Source: an uncultured Victivallales bacterium
Lineage (GTDB): Bacteria; Verrucomicrobiota; Kiritimatiellia; UBA8416; CAYOBW01
NCBI GenBank assembly: GCA_964555035.1
Contig: CAZKRK010000046.1
Location: forward strand, 1 to 29,411
Length of the DNA: 29,411 nt
Direction of reading: 5' to 3'
How positions within the stretch are numbered: the stretch's first letter is position 1; each line of letters begins with the position of its first letter. Positions 133 through 28,885 of this stretch are shown here, piece by piece. Under the pieces are notes generated by a model. That model ran no database searches. It had not been told where the DNA came from and worked only from the letters and a program-made list of their open reading frames with translations. Position numbers and translations under genes: made by a program.

Positions 133-1581
133 ATGTCAAGCAGGAGACCGCCCATGAACCGTCCCCACTCTCGCCGCGCCTTTATGAAGCTTTCCGGGAT
201 CGGGGCGGCCGCACTGGCGCTGCCGGCCGCGGGCCGCGCACAGTCCGGCAAACGCCCACCGAACTTCGTGATCGTATTCCTAGACGATTCCGGCTGGGGG
301 GACTTCCGCCCGTTCGGCAAGCCGCAATACCCGACGCCCAACGTGGAGGAGCTTGCGCGGGGCGGGTGCCGTTTCAACCACTTCTGCGTACCGCAGGCCG
401 TCTGCTCCGCGTCACGTTCAGCGCTGATGACCGGCTGCTATCCCGGGCGCACCAAGGTGTTCGGCGCACACCCGCCGCGGGCCCGCGGCCTGGATCCGAA
501 ATTCGCCACCCTGGCGGAAGTGCTGAAGCCGAAGGGCTACAAGACCGCGGTCTTCGGCAAGTGGCATCTCGGCGATCAGCCCGACACGCGCCCGCCGGCG
601 CGAGGGTTCGACGAGTCCTGCGGCCTGATGTACTCCAACGACATGTGGAAGTACCATCCCGGCACGCGCCACTTCGACAAGTGGCCGCTCCAGTTCTGGG
701 ACAACGGCAAGATCACGATCGAAGACGTCACTCCCGAGGACCAGAAGAGCCTGACGAAGTGGTCCGCAGAGCACGCGGTGAGTTTCATCGAGCGGCACAA
801 GGACGAGCCGTTTCTCCTCTACGTCCCGCACTCCATGCCGCACGTTCCGCTCTTCTGCAGTGACGAGTTCGACGGCAAGTCGGGCCGGGGGCTGTACGCA
901 GACGTGATGATGGAGATCGACTGGTCCATGGGCGAAATCATGAAGGCGCTGAAGAAGGCCGGCATCGAAGACAATACGGTTGTCATGTTCACGTCCGACA
1001 ACGGCCCGTGGGTGTCTTACGGCAACCACGCCGGCGTTACGCCCTACCGCGAAGCCAAGGCCACCGGATTCGACGGCGGCATCCGTAGCGCCTGCATTGT
1101 CAAGTACCCGCCGCAAATCAAGGCGGGAACCACGTCCGAGCGTATGTTCAGTTCGCTCGACGTGCTGCCCACGTGCGCGGCCCTCGCCGGCGCGGAGCTG
1201 CCGAAAAACGAAGTCGACGGCAAGAACGTCTGGGATCTGATTACGGGCAAACCGGGCGCGTCGAATCCGCACGACTACTATCCCTTCTCAACCGGCGGTA
1301 CGTTTGAAGGCGTCATCGGCGGCGATGGGAAGTGGAAGCTGCACGTGCCCCATCGGTACCGGACGCTGGTGAAACCCGGCAACGACGGCAAGCCGGGCCA
1401 GTATAAGCAGGCGCGTATCGAACTCTCGCTGTTCGACATGGAAAACGACCCATACGAAACGACGAACGTGATCGACAAGCATCCGGAGGTCGCCAAAAAG
1501 CTGCAGGCCTACGCCGATGCACACAAGGCGAGATTCTACCGAAAATCGAAGCCCAAACCGAAAAGGAAAACCACCGGGTAG
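133..1581 (+). CDS. Sulfatase (arylsulfatase A-like, formylglycine-dependent), Tat/Sec-exported
   Basis: The N-terminus has a twin-arginine-like signal (SRRAFMKLSGIGAAALALPAAG). The block NFVIVFLDDSGWGD is followed by the C-x-A-x-R formylglycine motif (CSASRSALMTG). GKWHLG, the TSDNGP block and a complete sulfatase C-terminal segment (ELSLFDMENDPYETTN) are all present. An alternative start is the Met at 154. Confidence 0.9.
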   Translation: MSSRRPPMNRPHSRRAFMKLSGIGAAALALPAAGRAQSGKRPPNFVIVFLDDSGWGDFRPFGKPQYPTPNVEELARGGCRFNHFCVPQAVCSASRSALMTGCYPGRTKVFGAHPPRARGLDPKFATLAEVLKPKGYKTAVFGKWHLGDQPDTRPPARGFDESCGLMYSNDMWKYHPGTRHFDKWPLQFWDNGKITIEDVTPEDQKSLTKWSAEHAVSFIERHKDEPFLLYVPHSMPHVPLFCSDEFDGKSGRGLYADVMMEIDWSMGEIMKALKKAGIEDNTVVMFTSDNGPWVSYGNHAGVTPYREAKATGFDGGIRSACIVKYPPQIKAGTTSERMFSSLDVLPTCAALAGAELPKNEVDGKNVWDLITGKPGASNPHDYYPFSTGGTFEGVIGGDGKWKLHVPHRYRTLVKPGNDGKPGQYKQARIELSLFDMENDPYETTNVIDKHPEVAKKLQAYADAHKARFYRKSKPKPKRKTTG

Positions 1582-2032: not shown

Positions 2033-2669
2033 TCACCGCTTCTTCTTGCGCGGCTTGCGTTGGCGCAACGGCGTGTTGTCCTCCGGCACCTTGAGCTCTT
2101 TGCGCAACCGGTGCAGCTCCGCCAGCAGCTCCTTCCGGACGGAGGCGTATTCGGGTTTGCCGTAGACGCTGTTGAGCTCGTTCGGGTCTTTCTCAAGGTC
2201 GAACAGCTCCCACTCCTTCAGTTGGTAGTAGTGGATCAGTTTGTGGTTGCCGGTGGTGACGCCGTAGTGCCGCGCCACGCTGTGGGCGCCCGGGAACTCG
2301 TAGTAGTGGTAATAGAACGACTTTCGCCAGTCCTCCGGCGTCCGTCCCTTGAAGAGCGGCACGAGGCTGCGTCCCTGCATGTCGGCCGGGACAGGCACAC
2401 CCGCCAGGTCGAGAAACGTCTCGGCTTGGCCCGCAGATGGAGTTGGTGACGTGACAGCGCGTGAACTTCATGCCGCCCTTGGCGATGCGGTCCATGTTGG
2501 GCGTCGTCATGCGCGTGGGGTCGTACGCGCTCAACGCCTGCTCGCAGTGGTCATCGGTGAAGATGAAGATGATGTTGGGTCGCTTGTCCTTGCCGACGGC
2601 GCGCGCCACGCCGCTAGCCAGTCCTGCCGTTCCCACCATCGCTGTCTTCATGAAATCACGTCGGTTCAT
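2033..2669 (-). pseudogene. Sulfatase gene with a large internal out-of-frame deletion
   Basis: ORF 2193-2669 encodes the Tat signal ([13 protein letters not shown]), [10 protein letters not shown] and the CGPSR active-site motif, then loses homology. The frame of ORF 2033-2398 continues from about nt 2420 as [26 protein letters not shown]...[16 protein letters not shown], which is a sulfatase C-terminus. Roughly 270 central residues are missing and the two halves are in different frames. Confidence 0.8.
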
Positions 2670-7856: not shown

Positions 7857-10800
7857 ATGAGGCAGAACCGGCTCTTTCTCGACCTCGAAACAACCCGGAG
7901 CGGACGCATTCGCAAAGTCGGCGCCGTATTCGGCGATCGTGTTGTGTCGTCGGCACACGACGGGGGCGTGCAACGGGCGCTGTCCATTCTGGACCGAATA
8001 GCCGGCCAGGCCGAGTGCCTCGCGGGACACAACATCGTCGATCACGACCTGCCTGCTCTTCGCCATTGCCGTGCGGACTTGAAACTCCTGCAGGTTCCCG
8101 TGATCGATACGCTCTACCTCTCGCCGATCTGCTTTCCCGAAAATCCCTATCATTGCCTGGTCAAGGACTACAAGTTGGTCTCGGAAACCGTCAGCGATCC
8201 TGTCGAAGACGCCCGCCTGGCCGCAACGCTGTTCGAGGACGAAATCGCGTCTCTGATCGGTATCCGAGAAAGCAGTCCCGAGCTTTTCAAAGCGTTGCAC
8301 CTGCTGACCACAAAGACATCGCCGTCGGATCCCGGATCTCATGCGACCGGAATGAGGCATCTGTTCCGGAGCCTCGGGGCCGACGCGGTCACCGATGACG
8401 CGCTCGAGTGTGTCCGCGGGATGGCGGCGCAGTACGGCTGTCGAACGGCAGCCGTACGCTTGGACCACACGAACCTCACGTCCGCGCAGAAGTGCTGGGC
8501 GCTGGCCTTCGTGCTGACCTGGTTGCGCGTGTCCGGCTCGGATTCCGTCATTCCGCCCTGGGTGCGGCACCGCCACCCGTCCGTCAGCGTATTCCTTCAT
8601 GCGCTCCGGGATGTTCCTTGTGACGACGCGGATTGCCGGTATTGTGCCGAAACCCACAGTCCCGAGAAGCAGCTCAAGCGGTTCTTCGGGTTCGACTGCT
8701 TCCGACCCACGCCGCATGATGGGAACGGCGGCAGCCTGCAACGCCGCATCGTGTTGGCGGGGATGCAGGGAGAATCGCTCCTGGCGATCCTGCCGACAGG
8801 CGGCGGCAAGTCACTCTGCTACCAACTGCCCGCACTTGTCCGCAGCGTCCGGCGAGGGCAGTTGACGGTCGTGATCTCCCCCCTGCAGGCGTTGATGAAA
8901 GACCAGGTGGACGGGCTGCAACGCCGCACCGGCCTTGAAAACGCCGCCGCGCTCTACGGCCTTCTGACGCCGCCCGAGCGTGGTGACGTACTCCGACGTC
9001 TCAGGACAGGTGACATAGCGGTTCTGTACGTATCTCCGGAGCAACTCCGCAACGCTTCCTTCACCAGGGCAATCTCGCAGCGGGAGGTCGGTTGCTGGGT
9101 CGTCGACGAGGCGCATTGCCTGTCGAAATGGGGACACGATTTCCGCCCCGACTACCTCTACATCGGCCGCTTCATGCGCGAGCTCGCCAAGCGTCAGGGA
9201 TGCCCCTTGCCTCCCGTTGCCTGTTTCACCGCCACGGCCAAGCGCGATGTCGCCGAAGAGATCATGGCCTACTTTCAACGTGAGACGGCCATGCCCGTTG
9301 CCCTCTACCAGGGCGGCGTCGAACGCGAGAACCTGTGTTTCGAAGTGCAGACAGTCAGCGCGCCGGCCAAGCTGGGGCGAATCGACGAGTTGCTGCACGA
9401 CCGATTGGATGCGAACGGGAACGAAGGAAGCGCGATCGTCTTTCGTACTACGCGCCGGCTCGCCGAAGAAACGGCCGAGTACTTGTGCAACCAGGGGTGG
9501 CAGGCGGCGTTCTTTCACGCCGGCATGACGCCGCCGGAAAAGAAGCGCACGCAGGACGCGTTTCTCGACGGCGAGCTGCGCGTGATCTGCGCGACGAACG
9601 CGTTCGGCATGGGGATCGACAAGGACGACGTCAGGCTTGTCGTGCACGGCGATTCGCCGGCTTCGATCGAAAACTACCTGCAGGAAGCCGGCCGGGCGGG
9701 CCGTGATCGCGGCCGTGCCGACTGCGTGTTGCTCTATGACGAGGAGGACTGCGAGCAGCAGTTCCGTCTCGGCGCCTTTTCAGAACTGAGCCGGCGCGAT
9801 ATCGCCCAGATTCTGCGCGGGCTCCGTAAAGCCACCCGCACGCACGGCTCGGACAGCGTCGTGATCACGACCGGCGAGCTCATGCGCGACGAGGATGTCG
9901 ACACCACATTCGGGCCCGAAGACCTGTCGGCCGACACCAAAGTACGCGCCGCGATGTCCTGGCTCGAACGTGCCGGCTTCGTCGAACGCAACCAGAATCG
10001 CACCAACGTCTTTCAGGCGCGCCTCCTGGTACGCTCCACCGGGGAGGCGGAGGAGAAGCTCGCGCAGCTCGGCCTGTCCGACGCGGAGTCCCGGCTCTGG
10101 CTCGCCATCGTGCGTGAAATGATCAATGCCGGGGAAACCGACAGCCTGACCGTAGACGGGTTGGCTCTGCTGCCTGAATTCCAAGGCTATCTGAAGACCG
10201 GGGCGGAGTTCATACCGCACCATGTCGTGCGCGAGGGACGCAGCCAGGAGTATCTGAGTTCAAAGGTCCTCAAGGTCCTTAACTCCATGACGAACGTCGG
10301 GATCATGAAGAAGGATACGCTGCTCACCGCGTTCATTGCCTACAAGGTGGCCAACCACTCGCGCGTGCGTTTCGATCGGGTCTGCGCGAGCGATCGCGAA
10401 ATGCTGAAGGTGTTGATGGAAGAAGAGCCCGATCCGGAAGGCTGGCTGCCGCTCAATCTCCGTCTGCTGAACCAGACATTGCTGGATCGCGATGTTTCCG
10501 CGTCACCCCCTTTCCTGCGCAGGTTGTTGCGCAGCTTGAGCGAGGACGGCAAAGGGTTCTCGGGACAAAGGGGCAGCATCGAGTTGCGCCACGTCGGCCG
10601 CGATGCCTATCGGGTTCGGCTGCGGCGCGAGTGGGCACAGATCGCGGAGCTTGCCGAACGCAGGCGTCGCGTGGCCGGTGTGCTGCTCGACGCGATTGTC
10701 TCCAAAGTGCCGTCCGCCACTCCGCCTCGAGCGGACCTCCTCGTGGAGTTCTCTTTCGAAGAACTGACCGCCGCGCTCAACCGGGATCTCGCTCTGCGCT

Positions 10801-13073
10801 CGGACGTCCGCGACATGCAGGCCGCCATCGAACGGGGACTCATGTTCCTGCACGAGCAGAATGTCATTGTCTTGCAGCAAGGACTGGCGGTGTTCCGCTC
10901 GGCCATGACCGTTCGTGTGCTGCCTGAATCGAAAGGGCTGCGCTACACGCAGGACCAGTACCAGGCGCTCGAGCACCACTACCGCGAACGTGTGTTCCAG
11001 GTGCACGTCATGAACGAATACGCCCGGTACGGGATCGAGAAGATCCAGGAGGCGTTGGCTCTGGTTGTGGCATACTTCACAATGGAGAGGGAAGCCTTCA
11101 TTGCCCGCTTCTTCGGATCACGCCGCGAGCTCTTGGAACGTGCAACGACGGCACGCTCATACCGTCGGATTGTCGATGCCCTGGGCAACCGCGAACAGAT
11201 CCGCATCGTGACGGCGCCGCTCAACAAGAACATGCTCATCCTGGCGGGACCCGGATCGGGAAAGACGCGCACCGTCGTCCACCGGTGCGCCTACCTGTTG
11301 CGCGTGAAACGCGTGCGCCCCTCTTCCGTTCTCGTCTGTTGCTTCAACCACAAGGCAGCGCTCGAATTGCGCAGACGCCTCGCGGAGCTTGTCGGCCGCG
11401 ACGCCTGCGGCGTCACGGTTCAGACATACCACGGATTGGCCCTGCGACTGCTGGGGTTCTCGTGCAGCGCGATGAAACCGGACGCTCGCGATTCGCTCGA
11501 CTTCGACAGGTTGATCGTGGACGCCGTGGACCTTCTTGAAGGCGGAAAGGCCGCGGCTGGCCTCGAATCCGACGAAACGCGTGACCGGCTCTTGGCGGGA
11601 TACGAACACATCCTCGTCGACGAGTATCAGGACATCGACGAGGCGCAGTACCATATGATCGGCGCAATCGCCGGGCGGACCCTTGAAGATGGCGATCGCA
11701 AGCTCACCATCCTTGCCGTCGGAGACGATGACCAGTCCATCTACGGTTTCCGCGGCGCGAACGTCACGTTCATTCGCCGTTTCTGCGAAGACTTCGAGGC
11801 CGCCACACACCACCTCGTCGAGAACTACCGGTCTACCCGCTACATCATCGAAGCGGCGAACAGCGTCATTGCCCGCAACCGTGATCGAATGAAGTGCGAC
11901 TTGCCTATTCGCGTTGACGAAGGCCGCCAGCTTTCCCACCCCGGGGGGGCGATTGCCTCACTGCATCCGGAGACAAACGGACGCGTTGCCGTCGTCTCCG
12001 TGCGGGATGACGCCGCACAGGCTGTCGCCGCCGGGACCGAGATTGAGCGGCTTCGGACCCTTGGCGCGAAAGACTGGTCTCGAACGGCAATCCTCTCGCG
12101 AACGCGCCGCGATTTGTCGCTCGTACGCGTCGCGTTGGAGGCGAAATCGATTCCGGTCCAATGGCCTCTGCAGCGCAACAAGCTGCCCTCGATCTACCGA
12201 ATGCGCGAGGTCCATCGTGCTCTCGGCACACTCCGCGAGATGCGAAGCAGCAACAGAACGGCATCGGAGCTCTTCGAGCGCGTCGTCATGCCACCCGGTT
12301 CTTGCGGCAACGCGTGGGCGGGCATGATCGAATCCCTCTTGAGCGCATGGCAGGACGAAACCGGCAACGCCAGCCTTCCCGTTGGTGCTTGCGTCGATTT
12401 CCTCTACGAGTCGCTCGCACAGCGCCGGAGAGACGAACAGTTTGGCGTCGGCGTCGTCCTGAACACGGTCCACGCGGCCAAGGGAACGGAGTACGACCAC
12501 GTTATTCTTTGCGGCGATTGGTCCAATGGGAGCAATGCCGCGGACATCGAAGAAGAACGCCGCGTCTTCTACGTCGGCATGACACGTGCGCGGCATTCGC
12601 TGTGCATTCTCGATCGCGCCGATACGCGCAACCCGTTCCGTGGAGAGCTGGTTGGCCCTTGTTTCGCCCCGCGACATGAGATGGGCCCCGCGAACGGCAA
12701 TCTCGCCTATCGCGACTACACGCTGCTTGGTCTCGATGACATGTTCCTGGACTTTGCGGGCCGGCAGCCGGCCCGCCACCGCGTTCACGAGGCTCTGTCC
12801 GAGCTGAAGCCCGGAGCATCTCTGCAGGCACAAGCGCAGGATGGCCGCGTCTGGCTGGTCCATGGGGCAGGGACAACGATCGGCGCTTTGTCCGCACAGG
12901 CGACAGAACTCTGGCGCGATCGCCTCGACGACATCGACTCGATCCGCGTGGTCGGAATGTACACGCGCCTGCGCGAGGACATCGGCGACAGGAACTTCCT
13001 TGCCCGCATCCGCTGCGACTCGTGGGAAGTCCCGGTCTGCGAGGTCCGCTCCATGCCGGCCGGGCAGGACTGA
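7857..13073 (+). CDS. Giant triple-fusion protein: DEDD 3'-5' exonuclease, RecQ-type SF2 helicase core and UvrD/PcrA-type SF1 helicase
   Basis: Residue numbers follow the 7725 ORF. Exonuclease motifs are LFLDLETT (aa 50-57) and GHNIVDHDL (aa 101-109). RecQ motifs are LPTGGGKSLCYQLPA, VVDEAHCLSKWGHDFRPDY, ATNAFGMGIDKDDVRLVVH and YLQEAGRAGRD (aa ~320-675). UvrD motifs are LILAGPGSGKTRT, ILVDEYQDID, VGDDDQSIYGFRGA, VENYRST, TVHAAKGTEYDHV and FYVGMTRAR (aa ~1160-1630). I chose the Met at 7857 as the start because the DxE motif then lies 6 residues in. The ORF is open from 7725. Confidence 0.85.
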   Translation: MRQNRLFLDLETTRSGRIRKVGAVFGDRVVSSAHDGGVQRALSILDRIAGQAECLAGHNIVDHDLPALRHCRADLKLLQVPVIDTLYLSPICFPENPYHCLVKDYKLVSETVSDPVEDARLAATLFEDEIASLIGIRESSPELFKALHLLTTKTSPSDPGSHATGMRHLFRSLGADAVTDDALECVRGMAAQYGCRTAAVRLDHTNLTSAQKCWALAFVLTWLRVSGSDSVIPPWVRHRHPSVSVFLHALRDVPCDDADCRYCAETHSPEKQLKRFFGFDCFRPTPHDGNGGSLQRRIVLAGMQGESLLAILPTGGGKSLCYQLPALVRSVRRGQLTVVISPLQALMKDQVDGLQRRTGLENAAALYGLLTPPERGDVLRRLRTGDIAVLYVSPEQLRNASFTRAISQREVGCWVVDEAHCLSKWGHDFRPDYLYIGRFMRELAKRQGCPLPPVACFTATAKRDVAEEIMAYFQRETAMPVALYQGGVERENLCFEVQTVSAPAKLGRIDELLHDRLDANGNEGSAIVFRTTRRLAEETAEYLCNQGWQAAFFHAGMTPPEKKRTQDAFLDGELRVICATNAFGMGIDKDDVRLVVHGDSPASIENYLQEAGRAGRDRGRADCVLLYDEEDCEQQFRLGAFSELSRRDIAQILRGLRKATRTHGSDSVVITTGELMRDEDVDTTFGPEDLSADTKVRAAMSWLERAGFVERNQNRTNVFQARLLVRSTGEAEEKLAQLGLSDAESRLWLAIVREMINAGETDSLTVDGLALLPEFQGYLKTGAEFIPHHVVREGRSQEYLSSKVLKVLNSMTNVGIMKKDTLLTAFIAYKVANHSRVRFDRVCASDREMLKVLMEEEPDPEGWLPLNLRLLNQTLLDRDVSASPPFLRRLLRSLSEDGKGFSGQRGSIELRHVGRDAYRVRLRREWAQIAELAERRRRVAGVLLDAIVSKVPSATPPRADLLVEFSFEELTAALNRDLALRSDVRDMQAAIERGLMFLHEQNVIVLQQGLAVFRSAMTVRVLPESKGLRYTQDQYQALEHHYRERVFQVHVMNEYARYGIEKIQEALALVVAYFTMEREAFIARFFGSRRELLERATTARSYRRIVDALGNREQIRIVTAPLNKNMLILAGPGSGKTRTVVHRCAYLLRVKRVRPSSVLVCCFNHKAALELRRRLAELVGRDACGVTVQTYHGLALRLLGFSCSAMKPDARDSLDFDRLIVDAVDLLEGGKAAAGLESDETRDRLLAGYEHILVDEYQDIDEAQYHMIGAIAGRTLEDGDRKLTILAVGDDDQSIYGFRGANVTFIRRFCEDFEAATHHLVENYRSTRYIIEAANSVIARNRDRMKCDLPIRVDEGRQLSHPGGAIASLHPETNGRVAVVSVRDDAAQAVAAGTEIERLRTLGAKDWSRTAILSRTRRDLSLVRVALEAKSIPVQWPLQRNKLPSIYRMREVHRALGTLREMRSSNRTASELFERVVMPPGSCGNAWAGMIESLLSAWQDETGNASLPVGACVDFLYESLAQRRRDEQFGVGVVLNTVHAAKGTEYDHVILCGDWSNGSNAADIEEERRVFYVGMTRARHSLCILDRADTRNPFRGELVGPCFAPRHEMGPANGNLAYRDYTLLGLDDMFLDFAGRQPARHRVHEALSELKPGASLQAQAQDGRVWLVHGAGTTIGALSAQATELWRDRLDDIDSIRVVGMYTRLREDIGDRNFLARIRCDSWEVPVCEVRSMPAGQD

Positions 13074-13139
13074 GTTCGTCGATCGCTCCGCCTATGCCGC
13101 CCCTCCGGGGCTTGTTTCCATGCTCGACGCATGTGCGGC

Positions 13140-13350: not shown

Positions 13351-16122
13351 CTACGGTCGCGCCAACTCCGCCTCGACGCGCGCGACGAGGTCCAGTCCCT
13401 CTTGGAGAGCACCATCGCCGTCGCTTCCGCCGCCGTCGAAGGCGGCCAGGGCAGAGACGAGGGCTGCGGGTTCTGTCGGGAGCTCGGAACCGTCGCCGTC
13501 GGGCTTTGTTCCGGGACCGTGGTGCAGGACGACGACCGCTTCGCGCCCCGCTCCCAGAACCGTCGCAAGGTGCGGGAGTGCCTGCTCCGCAAGACCCACA
13601 CCCGCCAACGCCTCGACGGCCTTGCGCTCGGCTGCGGTCGTTGCCCAGACCTTGCGTGCCGCGGCACGGTGGAGCTTCGGCTTGGGCCGTTCCCGCGGGG
13701 GCAATGGCGTGTAGCCGTCGGCGGCATGTACCGTATCGATGTCGGCGGACAGCGTGAGGATGCCCATTTCCTGAAGCCGCAGCAGCATCGCGTGCATCTC
13801 CGGCGTAATGACCTCGGCCGTGGCGCCTGCCGCCTCGGCCGTATCGCGAAGCGCATCGAGGTCCGTTCCGGGGCGCGACACGACTACCGTCCCGCCGGTT
13901 TTGGCGTTGCGTTCGATGCCGAGGATGATGTCCGCGTGGCGCGCCGTGAGTTCTTCCTTCAGTGTCCTGGGTTTCTCTTCGCGAGCCGGTGGGGCAGGCG
14001 CCACGGGCTCCCCGCCCAGCAATTCGCCGACGCGCGCCGCAAAGGCCTGGCGACCGGTTTTGCCGCTCGGCCGTTCCTCGAACGCGGCCCCGTCCAGCAC
14101 GGAGTCGGCCAGCGCGGTCTTGTACGCCAACTTGTCGAGCATGGCGCTTTCGATCGAGCGTTCCGCGACCAGGTTGACGACGCGCACGCTTCGCTTCTGG
14201 TGCTTGCGCCAGGCCCGCGCGATGCGCTGCTCCAGCTTCGCCGGATTCCAGGGCAGGTCGAGGTTGATCACGATGTTCGCGGCCTGCAGGTTCAGACCCG
14301 CGCCGCCTGACTCGGACGAGAGAAACACGCGGCAGTCGGCATTCTGCTTGAACATGCGGATCTGCTCGCGCCGTTTCTGCTGGGGGATTCTGCCGGTGTG
14401 TTCCGCGAACCCGATTCCTTTTGCGGTCAGCAGTTCCTTTACGAGGTCGAGCATGCGCACCCACTCCGAGAATATGATGACCTTCGCCTCCGGGTCGTCA
14501 CCCAGCAGGTCGTCGAGGATGTTCTCCAGCTCCTCCAGCTTCGGACAGTCACGGCACTCGGGGTCAAGGATGTAGGGCGTGTCGCAGATCATGCGCATGC
14601 AACCCAGCAAGAGCAGAAGGCGTTCCTGCTCCTTCTTCGTCAACGGGCGCCGTTTCATGATCGAAACGAGCATGGCCACGTCGTATTCGATCTCGGCATA
14701 GCGCGCCCGCTGCTCTTTTGTCATGGAAACGAAGAAGTTCTTGTCGGTACGTTCCGGCAAGGCGTCTTCGACGTCGCTCTTGCGGCGGCGCAACATCACC
14801 GACGAGACCGTGCGGTGCAGCTTGTCCAGGTTCCTGGGGCGGACCTCGTTGTCGGAAGTGAGTTCCATAAACGCGCGCTGAAAACGGAAGAGCGACCCGA
14901 ACACGTGTGGGTCGACGAACTCGACCAACGAGTACAACTCCTCGATGCGGTTTTCCAAGGGCGTTCCGGTCAGCACGAATGCGTATGGACTGCGCACCCG
15001 CTTGATCGTTTTGGCGGTCTTCGTGGGCCAGTTCTTGATGCGTTGCGCCTCATCGAGGATGACGAGGTCCGGAACGAGCAGGCGGTTGATATCGTCCACG
15101 TCATTGCGTACCTGCTCGTAGTTGCAGAGGCTGTACGGATGCTCCTCGGCATAGAGGCGCAGGCGGGCGGGCCGCGATCCGAAGACCGGCTTGGCCTGGC
15201 GGCCGGTGAACTGCATGATCTGGTCCTCCCACTCCGCCTTGAGCGAAGCGGGGCTGACCACCAGCACGCGGCGCACGCGGCCGGACTGGCGCAGCAGCTC
15301 GGCGGCGGCAATCGCCTGCACCGTCTTGCCGAGCCCCATCTCGTCGGCCAGCAGGGCGCGACCGGTGAAAGCCAGATGTGCCATGCCCGCTTTCTGATAG
15401 GGGTACAAGGGAAGGACAACGGGGTTGTCGGTGCGTTTGGCGGCTGCCACGTCGCGATCGAAATGCCGCCGCAGCTCGTCAAGGTCCGTCCTGAACCTCT
15501 CTCGCTCGAGCCAGTAGTCGACGTGTTCGGACAGACGCACGCCCTTCCGCGCCGATGCGGTGAGCATGGCCGTGGCGCGTTCCGCGGCCGTGCACGCGTC
15601 CGTATTGCCGGCCAGGGCGAAGCCTTCATCGCCGAACAGCGACCCCACGCGCCTCTCGACCGCGGCGATGCCCGCTGCCGGCCGCAACAGGCGCAACCGC
15701 GGATTGGGTCCGCGAACGTCCATGAAAATCTCGTAGGCAGGCGATCCCGCCTTTGCCGCGCGGGCAAAGGCGCGCTTCTTGCGGTGCTGGATGAACTGCC
15801 GCACACGCTCGATGTGCTTGCAGCACCCGAGGCGGTTCATGCGGTAGTCCTGACACGAACAACTGTTCAGGTTCTCCGACAGACTCCGAATCTCGACGCG
15901 GTAGGGTTGCTCCCACTGCGTGGACGAGACCTCGAAGAGACCGTGGAAATCGTCACGCATCGCCACGCGGGTGACCTGCGCCTTTTCCTTCTCGGCACTC
16001 TCGCGCCGCAGCACGATGCTCTGCTCATCCGTCGGAAAGCCAACCCGTTTCGGTGGCCGTTTCTGGACCTGTTTGGCCTTCTTGCTTCTGCGTTTCTTCC
16101 GCGTCTTCCGTTCCAAGCTCAT
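13351..16122 (-). CDS. SNF2-family helicase/translocase with N-terminal SWIM zinc finger and an uncharacterised C-terminal extension of about 230 aa
   Basis: The SWIM motif CSCQDYRMNRLGCCKH is at aa 88-103. SNF2 motifs are LLADEMGLGKTVQAIA, the DEAQ box (VILDEAQRIKN) and LTGTPLENR. The helicase-C region includes SSESGGAGLNLQAANIVINLDLPWNPAKLEQRIARAWR. The N-terminus is highly basic (KTRKKRRSKKAKQVQKRPPKR). Confidence 0.9.
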   Translation of the reverse strand: MSLERKTRKKRRSKKAKQVQKRPPKRVGFPTDEQSIVLRRESAEKEKAQVTRVAMRDDFHGLFEVSSTQWEQPYRVEIRSLSENLNSCSCQDYRMNRLGCCKHIERVRQFIQHRKKRAFARAAKAGSPAYEIFMDVRGPNPRLRLLRPAAGIAAVERRVGSLFGDEGFALAGNTDACTAAERATAMLTASARKGVRLSEHVDYWLERERFRTDLDELRRHFDRDVAAAKRTDNPVVLPLYPYQKAGMAHLAFTGRALLADEMGLGKTVQAIAAAELLRQSGRVRRVLVVSPASLKAEWEDQIMQFTGRQAKPVFGSRPARLRLYAEEHPYSLCNYEQVRNDVDDINRLLVPDLVILDEAQRIKNWPTKTAKTIKRVRSPYAFVLTGTPLENRIEELYSLVEFVDPHVFGSLFRFQRAFMELTSDNEVRPRNLDKLHRTVSSVMLRRRKSDVEDALPERTDKNFFVSMTKEQRARYAEIEYDVAMLVSIMKRRPLTKKEQERLLLLLGCMRMICDTPYILDPECRDCPKLEELENILDDLLGDDPEAKVIIFSEWVRMLDLVKELLTAKGIGFAEHTGRIPQQKRREQIRMFKQNADCRVFLSSESGGAGLNLQAANIVINLDLPWNPAKLEQRIARAWRKHQKRSVRVVNLVAERSIESAMLDKLAYKTALADSVLDGAAFEERPSGKTGRQAFAARVGELLGGEPVAPAPPAREEKPRTLKEELTARHADIILGIERNAKTGGTVVVSRPGTDLDALRDTAEAAGATAEVITPEMHAMLLRLQEMGILTLSADIDTVHAADGYTPLPPRERPKPKLHRAAARKVWATTAAERKAVEALAGVGLAEQALPHLATVLGAGREAVVVLHHGPGTKPDGDGSELPTEPAALVSALAAFDGGGSDGDGALQEGLDLVARVEAELARP

Positions 16123-16269: not shown

Positions 16270-16297
16270 AGGCTCACACCTTGTAAAGTGTGAGCCT
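16270..16297. promoter_or_regulatory. Palindrome AGGCTCACAC-N8-GTGTGAGCCT overlapping the regulator stop codon, upstream of the SNF2 gene (operator or terminator candidate)
   Basis: It has a perfect 10-bp stem and the loop CTTGTAAA. The same stem sequence recurs at 16897-16930. Confidence 0.45.
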
Positions 16298-16907
16298 ACC
16301 CCTCCATGCAAGCGATTCGTACCAACTCATGCGCAAGAGGCGATAACTTCCGCGCCAGGGCGTATGTCCCGCGTTGGTTCCGGACGACAATGTCACGGCG
16401 CACCAGTTTGCTCACATGACGCTTCATCGCCGGCAGAGAAATGCCGCATCGAACAACCAGTGCCACAATCGACAACCCCGGCGAGCGATTCAGTTCCCGC
16501 ACGATCCGGATGCGTCTAGGATGTGTGAAAGCTGTAAGGTTCCGAAACGCCCCCTCGATGGCGCCTAGGCGCCTGGAAAGCTGTCGTTTCATCGCGGTGA
16601 CAAGGGCCTCGGAAAACGAGATCGTGCTGTTTGGAGACACAGTGTACACGACCCAACGACTCGTCCGCCGCGCATCCAGGATGCCTCTGGCGTTGAGAGC
16701 CCGAAGACATTGGCTCGCACTGGATTCCGATATGCCTACCTGCGCGGCGACATCGGAGACGCACTGCCGTTGATGTCGAAGCAGAAACCGCAACACAGCG
16801 AGCCGTCTCCGGTTCGCCAATGCCCGGCATGTGCGCCAAAGCGTAGGACTGAGTGAACGCGCGTTCTCCATACCATCTCCAAGTAGACACCTCAACGCCA
16901 GGCTCAC
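16296..16907 (-). CDS. Transcriptional regulator with two tandem ArsR/SmtB-type winged-helix domains
   Basis: Domain 1 reads RTCRALANRRRLAVLRFLL...QCVSDVAAQVGISESSASQCLRALNARGIL. Domain 2 reads FTHPRRIRIVRELNRSPGLSIVALVVRCGISLPAMKRHVSKLVRRDIVV. The first 12 codons overlap the upstream palindrome, so the Met at 16871 (MENARSL) may be the real start. Confidence 0.75.
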   Translation of the reverse strand: MSLALRCLLGDGMENARSLSPTLWRTCRALANRRRLAVLRFLLRHQRQCVSDVAAQVGISESSASQCLRALNARGILDARRTSRWVVYTVSPNSTISFSEALVTAMKRQLSRRLGAIEGAFRNLTAFTHPRRIRIVRELNRSPGLSIVALVVRCGISLPAMKRHVSKLVRRDIVVRNQRGTYALARKLSPLAHELVRIACMEG

Positions 16908-17732: not shown

Positions 17733-17892
17733 TCTCCGCAGGGCGCGTAGTCGCTTTCTGTGTGTAATAGGCAGGACAAGCCCGGCGGGGCTACTCTGAA
17801 AGTGCAGCAAATTGCAGATGCGCCCAGCGGCAGCGTACGCTCATAACACTCTTGCCCCCGCCGCGCCTCTCGTGCATGCTTACCGGGAGCGC

Positions 17893-20811
17893 ATGAAAAG
17901 CAGCCCTTTCACACCTATCCGCCTTCTCCACCTCGCCGTCGCAGGCACAATCGCCGCCTGCGCCGGGGGATGTCGTGAGGAACAGGAACAGTCGCCGCGC
18001 CGGGCGTTCGAGCTCGACCTGCGCGATCGCGGAGTCGTGCTGCAGCGGATTACCTACGGGCTGCCCGAAGAGTCGACCGCACGCGTCATACGCTTCGACC
18101 GGCGCGGGTTGCTGCGCTGTGCCCTCTACCTGCGCGACAGCAGCGACGAGAACTCGTTCATATACGTGGACCACGTTGGTGTGGTCACCCGGAACGGCAG
18201 GATTGCGACGACCTTGAAGGAGTACGGGGAATTGCTGGTGACGGGCGACCAACAGGCCCTCTACATCGACGGTACGCCTTTGCCCGTCAACACAAAGGGA
18301 TGGGACACGTTCTGGGTGTCCGCTGACGAAGCCGAACCGGACGTGACCCAGAGAACGTATGCCCCCGTGGACCTGTTCGACAGCTTCATGCGCACCGAGC
18401 TGACGAACGGCTTCTGCCGCGTGACCGACGGTTCCTGGGAGCTCAAACAACGCGGCGGCGGAATGCCGACGGAGGAAGAGGACTACCACAACGCCAGTTT
18501 TCAGCGGGCCGTCAACCCCTTCTCCATCCGGGGCGAAGAGCAGGGCCGGTTGACGTACGGTGACGACGATTGGATGAACTATCACGCTGAGGCGAGCTTC
18601 TACTTCGGCATACCGCGAACGATAAGCTGGAGCGATGCAGAGAACCTGCCCGTCGAAACGGACATGCTCATCGCGCAGGGCACGACCAACGGAAACCAGG
18701 TAGCGTTCGGCTGGTCCGGGCGCCATCGCGGATTCGTCCTCATGTCCCGTAGCGGTTCGTCCCTCTGGAAGGTGCTCGAACGCTGGGGCGGCAAGCGTCC
18801 CCCGCTGACGAACTGGTGCCGTATCGGTCTGCGCATCCACGCCGGCTATATCGCCGAAGGCATGCTCGACCGCAAAGCCGTACTGCGCACAAACCTGGCC
18901 ACGTGCATTGTCGGTCCATTCCACGTCATTGCGGGAGAGGCCCCCATCGAGGCCGACACGATTCGCGCCTACTCCCTGCCGCCAAAGCCGAACCTGGGCG
19001 ATACGGCGCACGTCAAGAGCCGCTTCTTCTCGGCCAAGAAGGAGCTCGGCAAATCCCGCGACCCGACGCAGTTCGGGGAGTGGTCCAAGTCTACCAGCGT
19101 TTTCGTGGAGTCACGCGAGACCGATACCAACGGCAATCACAAGGCCGTCATCACGATGCGGGTGCCGCTCATGGGCGACTTCACGGTCGACTCGGTGCCG
19201 TTCGACGACGAGGCCGGCGCCATACCGCCGGGCCCGTACGAGTTCGCCTTCCGGATAGCCGATACAAACGAGTTCGAGGCCATCATGGAGCATCCGCCGG
19301 TCCTCTCGCTGAAGGCCAGGCTCTCAGGCACGGGCTGGGCGCTTGAAGACCTGCCGGAAGATGTCTGGCCCGCGGGCCACCGCGAATTCGCTCTCCGCTT
19401 CGCCCGGCGAAGGGCCGAGGACAACAGGATCGTCGTTCTCTGCGGCGGGTCTGCGACGCCGCTTTCGCCCCCGCTGACGGAGCCGTTGCTCGTATCGGTT
19501 GCGCGCGTGGAAAAGGGCGGCAAACCGGATTACCCGTTCCCGCAGCATCACCTCATCCGTTGCGCAAACCTCGCAAACGAGTTGTTCGAGGAAGCGCCGG
19601 CGGATTGGAGCTGGATCGAAGGCGCCTTCCGCATGGATTGCCGCTGGGCCTGCATGAACCAGTGGAATTTCATGGCGTGCGGCTCGCCCGGCATCCCCTA
19701 CATGACCAGCAAGCGGACTTTCACGGGCGACCAGGTGCACGAGTGCTTCATGTCGTTGCGGCCGGCCCAGCCCTGCGACGCGTACGACAAGGACTTCTTC
19801 TATGACCGCAAAAAGGACGGCGGTCTCAGGCTGTTCCGCGCCAACGGCGGCTGGTACAACCGACGCGATCTCAACGTCTGTTTCTGCACCAACGGCCGCG
19901 ACCCCCTTTCCGGCTACAGCATCGTGTTTGCCGGGAGAGACAACAAGGAGACGTTTCTCCTGCGCAAAGGACGCGTCGTGGCTGCCTCCCAGAACAAGAA
20001 GTTCCTCTTCCACGGCACAAGCCATTCGAGCGTTCACTGGAAATGGTGGAAGTTCACGGTCGACAAGCGTGGCGGCCGTATCCGGTGTTCGCTCAACGAC
20101 ACCGTTATGTTTGACTATCACGATCCCGAGCCGATTCCCGGGGGACACCTTGGTTTCTGGTCCGTGCGCAACGGCTTCACGCTGGCACGCGTCATTTCCG
20201 TCGCCGAATCGGTCGGTTTGGAGCCGCACGCCCTGTTCGTAGGTGACGATGAGGACAGCCCGTGGGTGCCCCTCAAGCGCGACAGCGTTGTTGTCACGCG
20301 CTCATCCGGGGCCGGACTCACCCGCGCCACCGCCACCGTAGGCGGCGGGTTCTTCGCCATGCGCTACACGCTCCCCGTTCCGGTCGATTTGAACAAAACG
20401 CCCGTCATGAAACTGCCGCTTGACATCGGCTACGAAGCGGCCGTGAATCTTCACGCCGATATCGGCGGCACCGCATACGTGATTCCCCTGACGGCGCCCA
20501 TCTCCGAGATGAAAGCGTTGCTGGCCCCGGAATTCGAAAAGGGAGAGTGTTTCAAAATCCCGACCATCGACGAAGCCGTCATTCTACAGACGCGCTACCT
20601 TCGCAACGCCCGCCTGACTCACAATCTGTTGACCGTGGACTTCGCCGCGGCCCTGGAGGAGACCGGCGAGAAGCCCGAGACGCTGGAGCTCAGGAGCATC
20701 ACCATCGGCAACAGCAGCAACCAGGGCTACCTGTTGGCCGGAGCGAACGGCAGAAACGCGGCCGGCGCATGGTACGAAGTAGGTGTGCCCACATTCCGGA
20801 CACGTCAGTAA
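17893..20811 (+). CDS. Large predicted lipoprotein of unknown function with probable concanavalin-A/LamG-like beta-sandwich modules
   Basis: MKSSPFTPIRLLHLAVAGTIAAC has a lipobox-like IAAC. Segments such as GGWYNRRDLNVCFCTNG...GYSIVFAGRDNKETFLLRKG...GGHLGFWSVRNGFTLARV resemble the DUF1080/LamG-type fold; that fold assignment is inference. The ORF is open from 17812. Confidence 0.65.
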   Translation: MKSSPFTPIRLLHLAVAGTIAACAGGCREEQEQSPRRAFELDLRDRGVVLQRITYGLPEESTARVIRFDRRGLLRCALYLRDSSDENSFIYVDHVGVVTRNGRIATTLKEYGELLVTGDQQALYIDGTPLPVNTKGWDTFWVSADEAEPDVTQRTYAPVDLFDSFMRTELTNGFCRVTDGSWELKQRGGGMPTEEEDYHNASFQRAVNPFSIRGEEQGRLTYGDDDWMNYHAEASFYFGIPRTISWSDAENLPVETDMLIAQGTTNGNQVAFGWSGRHRGFVLMSRSGSSLWKVLERWGGKRPPLTNWCRIGLRIHAGYIAEGMLDRKAVLRTNLATCIVGPFHVIAGEAPIEADTIRAYSLPPKPNLGDTAHVKSRFFSAKKELGKSRDPTQFGEWSKSTSVFVESRETDTNGNHKAVITMRVPLMGDFTVDSVPFDDEAGAIPPGPYEFAFRIADTNEFEAIMEHPPVLSLKARLSGTGWALEDLPEDVWPAGHREFALRFARRRAEDNRIVVLCGGSATPLSPPLTEPLLVSVARVEKGGKPDYPFPQHHLIRCANLANELFEEAPADWSWIEGAFRMDCRWACMNQWNFMACGSPGIPYMTSKRTFTGDQVHECFMSLRPAQPCDAYDKDFFYDRKKDGGLRLFRANGGWYNRRDLNVCFCTNGRDPLSGYSIVFAGRDNKETFLLRKGRVVAASQNKKFLFHGTSHSSVHWKWWKFTVDKRGGRIRCSLNDTVMFDYHDPEPIPGGHLGFWSVRNGFTLARVISVAESVGLEPHALFVGDDEDSPWVPLKRDSVVVTRSSGAGLTRATATVGGGFFAMRYTLPVPVDLNKTPVMKLPLDIGYEAAVNLHADIGGTAYVIPLTAPISEMKALLAPEFEKGECFKIPTIDEAVILQTRYLRNARLTHNLLTVDFAAALEETGEKPETLELRSITIGNSSNQGYLLAGANGRNAAGAWYEVGVPTFRTRQ

Positions 20812-23008: not shown

Positions 23009-24448
23009 ATGGACACGATAATCGGGCGAGAAGCGGAAAAACGAGTGCTGAGGGCGGCACTCGAATCGGGTGAGGCCGAGTTCATCGCCGTATACGGACG
23101 CCGGCGAGTGGGCAAGACTTACCTTGTCAGTCGGTTCTTCGACCGGGCCGCTTTCTACTTCGAGTTAACCGGCACGCGTGACGGGCCGCTGCACGAGCAA
23201 CTGGCGAACTTTGCGGACGTTCTTGGACGCAAGGCCGGTCTGGATTTGGCTGTGCCGAAAAGCTGGGCCGAGGCGTTTCGGCAGCTCGTTCGCGTGTTGG
23301 AGGCCCGGCCGGCCGCGGGGAAACGCGACCGAACCGTTCTCTTTTTCGATGAAACTCCCTGGCTGGCCTCACGACGCTCGCGCTTCTTGTCGGCGCTGAG
23401 CTATTTCTGGAACTCCTGGGCCGGTCGGCGCCCCGACATCGTCTTGATCGTCTGCGGTTCGTCGGCGTCCTGGATGCTGGAAAAGGTAGTGGCCGACAGA
23501 GGAGGCCTGCACAACCGTCTTACGCGACGAATTCGTCTGATGCCTTTCACATTGCAAGAGACGGAGGCCTTCTTGCGATCGCGTGGCGTGCGGCTCGACC
23601 GACGACAGATTATCGACGTCTTCATGGTGGCCGGCGGCATTCCTCAATACCTGAAGCAAGTCGAGCCGGGACGGTCGTCGGCGCAGAGCATCGATGCGAT
23701 GTGCTTCCAGCCGGATGGCTTCCTGTACGACGAGTTCGATCGCCTGTACGCTTCCCTGTTCCATGATTCGGCCAAGCACATTGCCGTTGTCCGTGCGTTG
23801 GCGAAAACGCGTTCAGGGTTGTCGCGAACGGCACTGTTGAAACGGGCCGGTCTCGCATCGGGCGGAACGTCGACACGGGTTCTGACCGCGCTCGAAGAGT
23901 CGGGCTTCATTGCCCGGCACGTACCCTTCGGCCAGAGAGTCAACAACGCGCGATACCGGCTGATCGACGAGTACAGTCTCTTCTACCTTACCTGGATGGA
24001 GGGGAAGCGGCACGACTTGCTGAGCGAGTCGTGGTCGACGCAGTCGCAGTCCCGGCGGTGGTCAGCCTGGGCGGGGTTCAGTTTCGAGGGAGTGTGTTGG
24101 AAGCATGTCGACCGGATTACAGCCGAGTTGGGCATAGCCGGAGTACAGACCAGAGCGTCGACGTGGCAGCACAGAGGCGGTCCGGGAGAACAAGGTGCGC
24201 AGATCGATTTGCTCATAGACCGTGCGGACCGATGTATCTCGATCTGCGAAATCAAACACGGTGAAGGTGTTTTTGCCATTGACCGGAAGTACGCGGCCGA
24301 ACTGAGACGCAAGCTGGACGTGTTTCGCCTGCAATCGGGCACCCGCAAGACCCTGTTTCTGGTGATGGTCACGCCGAGCGGTTGCAAGCACAACGACTAT
24401 TTCACGCAGTTGGTGACTGACGAAGTGCGTCTGGAGTGCTTGTTCTGA
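23009..24448 (+). CDS. AAA-type ATPase (Arch_ATPase/ATPase_2-like) with a C-terminal DUF234/PD-(D/E)xK-like module
   Basis: GREAEKRVL...FIAVYGRRRVGKTYLV is the Walker A region and VLFFDETPW is the Walker B. The C-terminal QIDLLIDRADRCISICEIKHGE fits a D...E-x-K nuclease-fold motif. Confidence 0.85.
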   Translation: MDTIIGREAEKRVLRAALESGEAEFIAVYGRRRVGKTYLVSRFFDRAAFYFELTGTRDGPLHEQLANFADVLGRKAGLDLAVPKSWAEAFRQLVRVLEARPAAGKRDRTVLFFDETPWLASRRSRFLSALSYFWNSWAGRRPDIVLIVCGSSASWMLEKVVADRGGLHNRLTRRIRLMPFTLQETEAFLRSRGVRLDRRQIIDVFMVAGGIPQYLKQVEPGRSSAQSIDAMCFQPDGFLYDEFDRLYASLFHDSAKHIAVVRALAKTRSGLSRTALLKRAGLASGGTSTRVLTALEESGFIARHVPFGQRVNNARYRLIDEYSLFYLTWMEGKRHDLLSESWSTQSQSRRWSAWAGFSFEGVCWKHVDRITAELGIAGVQTRASTWQHRGGPGEQGAQIDLLIDRADRCISICEIKHGEGVFAIDRKYAAELRRKLDVFRLQSGTRKTLFLVMVTPSGCKHNDYFTQLVTDEVRLECLF

Positions 24449-26897: not shown

Positions 26898-27204
26898 GCA
26901 CGGATCCGCCTTCGCCGAGCTACGGCGGGACACGACGGGTTTCCGCGCTACCGTCCGTCGCCCACGACCTCCCTCCCCCGTCGACAAGCCGAAACAGGTT
27001 CGGGACAAGACCCGCAAGCCCCGCGCTTCGTAGAGCGTCCGCAGGTGCGTCTTGGAAAGACGCACCGGAGGGCGCAGGCCGGGCAAACCCCACCTCTCGT
27101 CTCCGGCCCGCGCGACGCGCGGGCCTCCGGCGAGTCTACGAAGACACGCCCCCGCCACCGGGGGCCGGGGTACGCCCCTGCGTACCTCCGGCTCCCCGGG
27201 CCGA

Positions 27205-28463: not shown

Positions 28464-28885
28464 ATCCCGGCAACGCGCTCTCTCGTTCCTACTCTCGTTC
28501 CCCCAGTTCTCAAGAAGACCCTCCAGAGATGAACTCCATGACAATCACACTCAGGCCGCGGAGCGTCGCTTGAGCGCCGCTTGTTCCACCGTCACCGGCG
28601 GGCGGGGGATTGTCCGCCGCGGTTCCGAGGAACCGGGGACAGACCTCCATTCCGCCCGCCGGGCGGTCAAACTTCGCGGCGCGGTATCTGCGCGCTGCAA
28701 GGCGTCCGTCTTGTGCTGCCGGCGAAAGCGTCGCCCGAGCTCCCTGGCGCGTCTCGCGGGGGGACAGCCCCCCGCGCCGTGCTCGCTTGCTCGGTCAACC
28801 TCGATCGCCGGCCGATCCATCATGCGTCCATCTCCTTCGGGCATCGTTGAGGCCCTTGCAGGGCCAACCGGGTTTTCAGCCCAGG

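Follow-up and report, generated by a model that had tools for sequence, protein, structure and literature searches.

A single open reading frame from an uncultured Victivallales bacterium combines a predicted DEDD exonuclease with RecQ-family and UvrD-type helicase cores

The contig CAZKRK010000046.1 (NCBI GenBank assembly GCA_964555035.1) derives from an uncultured Victivallales bacterium of the Verrucomicrobiota, and a stretch of 29,411 nucleotides of it (positions 1 to 29,411, forward strand; hereafter the window) was analysed. It carries a long gene that encodes, in one chain, a DnaQ-like DEDD 3'-5' exonuclease domain predicted from a modelled fold, a helical module with four invariant cysteines, a RecQ-family superfamily 2 (SF2) helicase core, a family-specific linker, a UvrD/PcrA-type superfamily 1A (SF1A) helicase core and a C-terminal tail (Table 1). 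An original prediction, made from the nucleotide letters alone, had proposed that one open reading frame (ORF) of about 1,740 amino acids (aa) fuses an exonuclease, a RecQ helicase and a UvrD helicase. The analysis recovered the three enzyme modules in that order, in a single ORF of 1,738 aa. Residue numbers given here are counted from ATG 7857.

Table 1. Coordinates in the window of the gene, its parts and its neighbours
Feature	Position	Strand	Details
Whole gene	7857..13073	+	ATG start; 1,738 aa plus stop; other upstream starts GTG 7725 and ATG 7767
DnaQ-like DEDD 3'-5' exonuclease domain (predicted)	7857..8276	+	aa 1-140; ExoI D9-x-E11; ExoII GH58N59xxxH63D64; ExoIII D118
Further exonuclease-domain motifs	within 7857..8276	+	D84-T85; NPYH99 loop; no His five residues before D118
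Helical module with four invariant Cys, putative Zn site	8277..8666	+	aa 141-270; directly before RecQ motif 0
RecQ-family SF2 helicase core	8667..9767	+	aa 271-637; motif 0 FGFDxFR..SLQ, PTGGGK318S, D417EAH, T458AT, QEAGRAGR616D
Family-specific linker	9768..11186	+	aa 638-1110; about four winged-helix modules predicted, then a long helix into the UvrD motor
UvrD/PcrA-type SF1A helicase core	11187..12617	+	aa 1111-1587; GPGSGK1136T, D1255EYQD, GDDDQ1293, NYRS1326, HAAKGxE1545, YVGMT1576RA
C-terminal tail	12618..13070	+	about 150 aa; less conserved; W1723 the sole invariant residue in the distant set
Terminator-like GC hairpin and T-rich tail	13099..13111	+	26 nt past the stop codon; consensus match only
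SNF2-family helicase	13351..16122	-	923 aa; convergent with the long gene
Protein with two winged helix-turn-helix (HTH) domains	16296..16907	-	just upstream of the SNF2 gene, same strand
Long ORF	17812..20811	+	999 aa; no Pfam or PADLOC match
ATPase, PDC-S27 match	23009..24448	+	479 aa; Pfam ATPase_2/AAA_16
RtcB RNA ligase	24478..25878	-	
RtcA RNA 3'-phosphate cyclase	25857..27158	-	overlaps the RtcB ORF by 22 nt
SPFH/Band_7 gene	27205..28311	-	
tRNA-Pro(TGG)	28884..28959	-	
Short sulfatase-like ORF	2193..2669	-	
Sulfatase, intact	133..1581		

In the ORF listing of the window the frame runs on the + strand without interruption from GTG 7725 to the stop at 13073, and the public gene call (P0001) starts at ATG 7767, giving a product of 1,768 aa. 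When 20 full-length homologues are aligned with the protein, the conserved part starts at the motif LFLDLE (residues 6-11), and most homologues have merely 5-20 residues ahead of it, which favours ATG 7857 as the most plausible start codon on the aligned sequences. The original prediction had counted residues from GTG 7725 (+44), and its residue numbers were therefore 44 too high for its coordinates; once this offset is applied every motif that it quoted is present, with DLETT at aa 9-13, HNIVDHD at 58-64, SDPVED at 113-118 and CDDADCRYC at 255-263.

The ORF at 7857-13073 is a real, intact single gene. Its product in the 1,768-aa call was found unchanged on 9 contigs from independent Joint Genome Institute (JGI) and Logan samples, with the same neighbours each time. 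An independent ORF call at 56 loci gave a single uninterrupted ORF in 55 of them, finished genomes and plasmids included (median 1,743 aa, range about 1,700-1,790). The junctions between modules are among the best-conserved parts of the protein in the alignment of 20 full-length homologues, where mean column identity is 62% along all 1,738 residues and across several phyla, and GC content is uniform over the gene and its flanks. An artefact, whether an assembly chimera or read-through across two neighbouring genes, thus has a negligible probability; nothing was found in its support, the only related point being a few genomes in which the gene is split by a frameshift. A chimera had been named in advance as the outcome that would undo the fusion, and it was rejected on the 9 identical contigs, the intact relatives in at least 80 species genomes, finished ones among them, and the 55 loci with one ORF.

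Both helicase cores were readily identified by profile and structure-database searches. In the RecQ part, Pfam DEAD (294-466) and Helicase_C (510-617) match above their cut-offs, and the NCBIfam model recQ_fam (TIGR00614) scores 277.1 bits against a cut-off of 219.8, which places the core in the RecQ family. PDB sequence matches include RecQ of D. radiodurans (4q47, 6.6e-63) and of E. coli (1.4e-59), and also RECQ5, BLM, RECQ1 and the WRN helicase. The full RecQ-type core that had been proposed was thus recovered, and the ATPase motifs PTGGGK318S, D417EAH, T458AT and QEAGRAGR616D are invariant across the alignments. The canonical RecQ equivalog (TIGR01389 / PRK11057) scores only 327.5 bits against 640 and covers model positions 4-338 of 591. 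No match to RecQ_Zn_bind (PF16124), RQC (PF09382) or HRDC (PF00570) was obtained in the window protein even at E<=1, in line with the original prediction, which had seen none of these modules.

The UvrD part is likewise complete, as anticipated. Pfam UvrD-helicase/AAA_19 covers residues 1117-1313 and UvrD_C residues 1531-1584, with scores of 156.2 bits for PF00580 (cut-off 23) and 82.4 for PF13361 (cut-off 25.6), and PDB sequence matches are E. coli UvrD (1.5e-42) and PcrA (4e-35); the core is of the UvrD/Rep/PcrA SF1A type. Scores against the NCBIfam equivalogs fall far short of their cut-offs (PcrA 206 vs 911; UvrD 195 vs 1,144; Rep 158 vs 951; RecB 84 vs 696), and the protein does not belong to the UvrD, PcrA, Rep, helicase IV, RecB or AddA equivalogs. 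The motifs GPGSGK1136T, D1255EYQD, GDDDQ1293, NYRS and T1576RA are invariant across the alignments. Both motors are expected to be active because the residues that define their ATPases do not vary. At the level of domains the protein is a member of the RecQ family and of the UvrD-like SF1A helicases, and by sequence it is not an orthologue of RecQ, UvrD, PcrA, Rep or DpdF.

The exonuclease assignment rests on the predicted fold together with residue conservation, since sequence profiles are nearly blind to this domain. The profile matches, weak but in agreement with one another, were to the PADLOC DEDDh model (E 6e-4, spanning ExoII to ExoIII) and, with E 1e-3 and 0.02, to two PHROG families named 'DNA polymerase exonuclease subunit'. 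An AlphaFold2 model of residues 1-275 (mean predicted local distance difference test score, pLDDT, 86.9; predicted template modelling score, pTM, 0.86) has the order beta1(5-12), beta2, beta3, alphaA, beta4(54-57), alphaB(60-71), beta5(82-84), alphaC and, further on, alpha(115-139), which is the DnaQ fold. In the model D9 and E11 lie on beta1, D64 lies at the start of alphaB within GHNxxxHD, and D118 lies at the start of the last helix. The highest structural scores were obtained with the TREX1 homologue 9mrc (12.1; 29% identity over 118 residues) and S. aureus DinG (12.1), followed by the PolC exonuclease (11.5), Exonuclease X and Pol III epsilon (11.1 each), Cas2-DEDDh and Cap18 (10.5 each) and the WRN exonuclease (8.3). 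The profile searches proposed with the original prediction gave a divided result, in which RecQ and UvrD models matched and RNase_T and DNA_pol_A_exo did not.

Residue conservation was assessed in a close alignment of 21 rows and in a distant alignment of 31 relatives that are 34-50% identical overall. The four acidic residues D9, E11, D64 and D118 are retained in 21/21 close and 30/31 distant relatives (51 of 52 alignment rows); in the distant set H58 and D84 are kept in 31/31, H99 in 30/31 and Y98 in 28/31. The modelled RNase H-like exonuclease fold and the four conserved acidic residues indicate membership of the DEDD (DnaQ-like) class. In DEDDh enzymes the general base is a His five residues before the ExoIII Asp, and in DEDDy enzymes a Tyr four residues before it. 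At position 113, five before D118, the window protein has Ser, as had been pointed out correctly at the outset, and the 31 distant relatives have N (21), S (4), P (3), K (1), Q (1) or a gap (1); position 114 is D, N, Q, H, R or S. The canonical general-base residue is absent, and the domain fits neither subclass.

It had been suggested that the nuclease is atypical or inactive. The first term is borne out; inactivity is argued against because the metal-binding acidic residues are kept in 30/31 distant relatives, and judging from these residues the enzyme is probably atypical but active. H99, in the near-invariant NPYH loop, is a candidate for a substitute general base, a role that stays hypothetical because the model is least confident in this loop. 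As a separate observation, one relative (P0256, 1,711 aa, otherwise full-length) has R, S and G in place of D9, E11 and D64 and a gap at ExoIII, with the four Cys kept; this lineage has apparently lost its nuclease, and such decay of the nuclease can occur.

Between exonuclease and RecQ core lies a module of about 130 aa that is helical in the model (block pLDDT mostly 84-95, about 72 at residues 151-160 and 221-230) and has no Pfam match. C195, C255, C260 and C263 are each present in 31/31 distant relatives and H267 in 22/31, and a Cys4 Zn site is the probable reading. The possible Cys/His knuckle noted earlier in this region is more likely of the Cys4 type. The linker of about 475 aa, described earlier as of unknown fold, is instead predicted as a tandem winged-helix array; the winged helix predicted directly after the RecQ core is not recognisably an RQC, and the linker gave no PDB sequence match. 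The tail has no assignable domain, as had been stated, with no match in Pfam, PADLOC, PHROG or PDB. A RecB-type C-terminal nuclease in the tail was considered and rejected, as no PD-(D/E)xK pattern was seen by eye.

The protein belongs to a family of fixed architecture. The protein database contains at least 120 homologues, which range from 1,441 to 1,903 aa, almost all being of about 1,720-1,790 aa, with 54-65% identity; nearly all cover 96-100% of the query, and two shorter ones cover 82-89%. For genomes, one per species was scanned (185,579 in total) with two exact peptide patterns, a procedure that undercounts: 529 genomes had matches to both peptides and code for some relative of the query, and at least 80 species genomes, finished isolate chromosomes included, have near full-length matches (aa about 6-1730, 43-64% identity). 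The linker was used for a further census since it is family-specific, and the number of 50%-identity clusters that it matched was 821 at E<=1e-3, falling to 519 at E<=1e-10 and to 199 at E<=1e-30. Among the best 150 linker matches, 68 are proteins of 1,600-1,911 aa that have the linker at the same place. The three shorter matches that were opened (P0170, P0178, P0124) are N-terminally truncated fragments, and most of the short matches to the N-terminal profile come from partial genes or from copies split by frameshifts. Natural variants lacking the exonuclease or the UvrD part were considered, and none was seen, the short matches checked being fragments or split copies. The single-chain layout and the domain order are fixed across the family.

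Carriers occur in at least 8 phyla in the genome scan. They include Verrucomicrobiota, Planctomycetota, Omnitrophota, Bacteroidota (Puia) and Binatia, sulfate-reducing Desulfobacterales and Desulfobulbales lineages, and many Methylococcales, Chromatiaceae and Endozoicomonas. Cultured carriers are Methylotuvimicrobium buryatense 5G, Allochromatium vinosum DSM 180, Desulfofustis glycolicus DSM 9705 and Thiohalocapsa halophila DSM 6210. The linker was also found on 22 of 72,556 plasmids, all large, of Rhizobium, Cereibacter, Paracoccus, Croceicoccus, Thiothrix and Allochromatium. Although rare, the family has a broad and patchy phylogenetic distribution. The architecture, called unusual in the original prediction, is indeed rare among genomes, but it is not a one-off, as the 821 clusters attest. 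The prediction had also allowed that the architecture might prove to be a common, already characterised family. It is widespread, but no published characterisation was found: a full-text literature search returned no description of an exonuclease-RecQ-UvrD fusion, with subscription journals thinly covered, so that a published account may exist. Where the proteins are annotated publicly, the label is 'RecQ family ATP-dependent DNA helicase'.

In Aeromonas sp. s11 (locus L094, 8001-13218) the gene is split into two ORFs, of 363 aa and 1,392 aa, in different frames; their overlap falls exactly where the exonuclease/Cys4 module meets the RecQ core. The shorter, 363-aa product has 14 member sequences in its 90%-identity cluster, and a split of this type may therefore be tolerated or even functional.

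The surroundings of the gene were compared across 55 loci. All-against-all ORF clustering found no cluster common to more than 5 of them. Among 143 ORFs within 2.5 kb the commonest Pfam family occurs 4 times, and in a PADLOC census of these neighbours only two SNF2 proteins and two RtcR-like regulators recur; these are raw counts taken with no background gene set, and they say nothing on enrichment. BLAST searches with integrase, transposase, McrBC, HsdM/S and GAPS4 queries added only isolated cases. At some individual loci the surroundings hint at defence or mobility. The gene adjoins a type I restriction-modification system and an integrase on plasmid pALVIN01 of A. vinosum (protein WP_223295316.1), and McrBC and an integrase at a second locus (L007); at a third (L005) an integrase and an excisionase-type HTH gene lie a few kb downstream, and on a Sulfitobacter plasmid IS66 and a toxin-antitoxin pair lie near it. 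In two assemblies of one 6.6-Mb genome (L095, 8001-13126; L096, 8001-13124) the gene is broken into 338 + 1350 aa or 338 + 593 + 684 aa, and the broken copy sits between Zorya type I genes (ZorA-like, EH_Signature, SNF2) and GAPS4 genes, beside a phage-type integrase. This locus is a textbook defence island with a decaying copy. In the family as a whole a few copies lie in defence islands and the majority do not.

We favour, with a probability of about 0.55, the reading that the gene encodes a stand-alone multi-domain 3'-5' helicase-exonuclease, built from a DEDD exonuclease, a Cys4 module, a RecQ motor, about four winged helices, a UvrD motor and a small C-terminal domain. The stand-alone arrangement is supported by the lack of a conserved neighbour in the 55 loci and by the terminator-like hairpin past the stop, although matches to this consensus occur at about chance frequency (four in the region). 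Both motors would hydrolyse ATP and translocate 3'->5' on single-stranded DNA (ssDNA), a polarity expected because it is established for RecQ and for UvrD/PcrA, while the winged-helix array would grip duplex or branched DNA and space the motors. The exonuclease would trim the 3'-ended strand that the motors lay bare, probably by two-metal chemistry through D9, E11, D64 and D118, with a general base other than the canonical His, for which H99 is the candidate. The simplest coupling is degradation of the 3'-ended strand, because a strand tracked by a 3'-5' motor exits with its 3' end trailing, which would be the polarity that a DEDD exonuclease needs. The protein may thus be a processive machine that unwinds and degrades from the 3' end at DNA ends, nicks, gaps or forks, acting as an accessory factor that processes aberrant or foreign DNA. 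The UvrD motor might follow on the same strand and strip RecA, SSB or polymerases; alternatively, at a nick, gap or fork it might take hold of the complementary strand and travel in the other direction, so that the DNA would be opened both ways, an arrangement that a winged-helix spacer of about 475 residues would fit.

Several results weigh against this reading. The exonuclease domain gave no Pfam match at E<=10 in the window protein and 11 relatives, RNase_T (PF00929) and DNA_pol_A_exo1 (PF01612) included, and a family-profile search of the PDB gave no match to it. In an hhalign comparison of the family profile with E. coli DnaQ (epsilon) only ExoI was aligned (LDLETT/LDTETT), at 2.7% probability. 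No His or Tyr occurs at position 113, and no Tyr at 114, among the 31 distant relatives, and the NPYH99 loop (FPxNPYH) is modelled with low confidence (block pLDDT 46-73). The models of the N-terminus and linker were built from shallow alignments of 12 and 20 sequences, and the linker model has a pTM of 0.53. It is also not obvious how two motors of like polarity in one chain would share the work at a simple DNA end. No copy was found among 50,697 phage records, most of the 55 loci have ordinary metabolic neighbours, and defence or mobile-element markers are rare within 2.5 kb.

An improbable alternative is that the N-terminal domain is a catalytically dead exonuclease fold, retained as a module that binds 3' ends or ssDNA, and that the protein is a double helicase only. 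The general-base His/Tyr is missing in all members examined, the Pfam RNase_T and DNA_pol_A_exo models do not match, and P0256 has dispensed with the acidic residues while keeping the rest of the protein, all of which would suit such a module. Retention of all four acidic residues in 51 of 52 rows, at identities down to 34%, is hard to square with a non-catalytic fold, and H58, D84, Y98 and H99, invariant or nearly so, offer alternative proton-shuttle residues. The cellular role of the protein may be defence or genome maintenance. We hold it possible, somewhat short of even odds, that it is a single-gene anti-phage or anti-plasmid defence, which would unwind invading DNA (linear ends, replication intermediates, conjugating ssDNA) and destroy it with the 3'-5' exonuclease. 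The patchy spread across phyla at 43-64% identity over the full length is consistent with this role, as are the plasmid-borne copies (22 records) and those beside type I restriction-modification, McrBC, or Zorya I and GAPS4 genes with an integrase, or near IS66 and a toxin-antitoxin pair. Fast turnover is typical of defence genes, and the split or decayed copies and the one member without DEDD residues fit it. The best PADLOC match of the RecQ part is a DpdF model (356 bits) and those of the UvrD part are GajB models, and a full-length PDC-S27 candidate lies 10 kb downstream in the window. These PADLOC matches are, however, limited to generic helicase cores, the N-terminus (save the weak DEDDh match), linker and tail being unmatched, and NCBIfam DpdF scores 185 bits, far under its cut-off of 550. 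Neighbours at the 55 loci are mostly housekeeping genes with no recurring defence family, the marker BLAST (integrase, transposase, McrBC, HsdM) added few cases, and the context figures are raw counts.

A more doubtful alternative is a role in maintaining the host genome, in which the protein would be a functional counterpart of WRN in bacteria and would act at stalled or regressed forks, gaps and unusual structures, the UvrD motor clearing RecA or RNA polymerase. The nearest characterised relatives of its modules are repair enzymes (RecQ, UvrD/PcrA and DnaQ/TREX/DinG-type exonucleases), and the 62% mean column identity over the whole length in several phyla agrees with such a role. The genes recQ, uvrD and dinG usually stand alone among ordinary chromosomal genes, and in most loci so does this one. 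It is nevertheless too rare for core repair, no more than a few hundred of the 185,579 species genomes having it, and the copies on plasmids and in defence islands are left unexplained. Equivalog scores are far below the RecQ and UvrD/PcrA cut-offs (327 vs 640; 195 vs 1,144), for which reason it is no orthologue that replaces recQ, uvrD or pcrA. Still less likely is the most specific combination, a new class of single-chain dual-superfamily helicase-nuclease whose SF2 and SF1A motors, set apart by the winged-helix array, would work on two strands or arms of the DNA and feed a DEDD exonuclease with a general base relocated to NPYH, acting as a lone defence against mobile elements.

Helicase-nuclease fusions, among them WRN, DinG, RecBCD and AddAB, have central roles in genome stability and bacterial immunity. 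In its proposed action the window protein is closest to WRN and to Gram-positive DinG, and with its two motors and a nuclease it also recalls RecBCD, AddAB and AdnAB, yet it is a member of none of these groups. WRN resembles the window protein in having a 3'-5' exonuclease and a RecQ core in one protein. Its nuclease, however, is of the RNase D/DEDDy type, whereas that of the family is closer to DEDDh, in keeping with the lower structural score of WRN (8.3). WRN also has Zn-binding, RQC and HRDC modules after the core, which the window protein lacks, and has no second motor, N-terminal Cys4 module or winged-helix array, all three of which belong to the window family (the latter two as predictions). 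The combination of DEDDy nuclease, RecQ core, RQC and HRDC that marks a WRN orthologue is not found here. Gram-positive DinG (S. aureus, B. subtilis) likewise joins a DEDD exonuclease, structurally among the closest (12.1), to an SF2 helicase, but its motor is XPD/Rad3-like rather than RecQ, and it lacks the UvrD module and winged-helix array. The DinG motor runs 5'-3'.

RecBCD, AddAB and AdnAB share the use of more than one helicase motor with a nuclease for processive unwinding and degradation, and the RecB/AddA motor is related to the UvrD-like motor described here (partial NCBIfam matches; RecB 84 vs 696). These complexes are multi-subunit with PD-(D/E)xK nucleases, whereas the window protein is one chain with a DEDD nuclease and SF2 plus SF1A motors; the RecBCD motors have opposite polarity and those of the window protein are expected to have the same. 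RecB couples unwinding to degradation of the 3'-ended strand by a different nuclease, as proposed here for the DEDD domain. Bacterial RecQ, M. smegmatis RqlH, DpdF and PsyrT have the RecQ-family core in common with the window protein, DpdF and PsyrT being the best PADLOC models. In canonical RecQ the Cys cluster follows the core, whereas in the window family it precedes it, with no RecQ-Ct Zn, RQC or HRDC. The NCBIfam DpdF model (NF041063) scores 184.7 bits vs 550, the PADLOC DpdF models cover aa 267-757 only, and no dpd genes or PsyrA-type partner lie near the gene in the window or at 55 other loci. UvrD, PcrA, Rep and GajB share the complete SF1A core with all motifs, which here forms the C-terminal half of a much larger protein. 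As to Gabija, the helicase core alone matches GajB, and no recurrent GajA-type partner was seen in the loci examined.

The protein is thus a variant of the helicase-nuclease fusion and not a new kind of system. To our knowledge, in every characterised helicase-nuclease the nuclease is joined to a single type of motor or to two SF1 motors that sit on different subunits; here SF2 and SF1A motors and a 3'-5' exonuclease share one chain, in an arrangement kept across at least 8 phyla. Of particular interest are the fixed architecture, the breadth of the family, the Cys4 module before the core, the winged-helix array and the missing general base, the Cys4 site and the array being predictions; the sequences themselves, from hundreds of genomes, were already public, under a generic RecQ label that hides two of the three enzymatic modules. 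In this family nature offers a case in which to study how two unrelated motors work together on one DNA; it also provides a bacterial counterpart to the exonuclease-RecQ arrangement of WRN and a DEDD nuclease lacking the textbook general base, and the cultured carriers make these questions directly testable.

At two further loci, in metagenome-assembled genomes of Methyloversatilis and Methylocaldum (L086, 9002-11191; L087, 2924-5251), the family gene has an ORF of 729 or 775 aa immediately upstream. The one at L086 is a RecD2-like superfamily 1B helicase (motifs GPGVGKT and VGDxDQLPSV), and ORFs of this kind were not seen at other loci. In the window, the SNF2-family helicase has a core like the SNF2 modules of ZorD and DpdE, and its first approximately 230 and last approximately 240 residues are without Pfam match. 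Together with the winged-HTH gene it accompanies the identical long gene on the other contigs; this pair is not a family-wide neighbour, and the SNF2 helicase was rejected as a family partner, SNF2 proteins accounting for 2 of the 143 neighbours.

The remaining features of the window lie farther from the gene. The lowest GC content (0.565-0.583) occurs at 16-18 kb, just upstream of the 999-aa ORF, which is followed by a 634-aa protein with a weak Wzy_C (O-antigen-ligase) match. The 479-aa ATPase is a full-length match to PADLOC PDC-S27 (601 bits, E 3.8e-181), a candidate single-gene defence ATPase, and lies about 10 kb downstream of the long gene, beside the RtcB and RtcA genes. The RtcA ORF, taken from its first possible start, has about 100 residues ahead of the RTC domain, and the SPFH/Band_7 and tRNA genes come after this pair. 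Near the other end of the window, the short ORF at 2193-2669 encodes a twin-arginine translocation (TAT) signal and the first approximately 54 positions only of a sulfatase domain, and may be what is left of a truncated sulfatase, next to the intact one.

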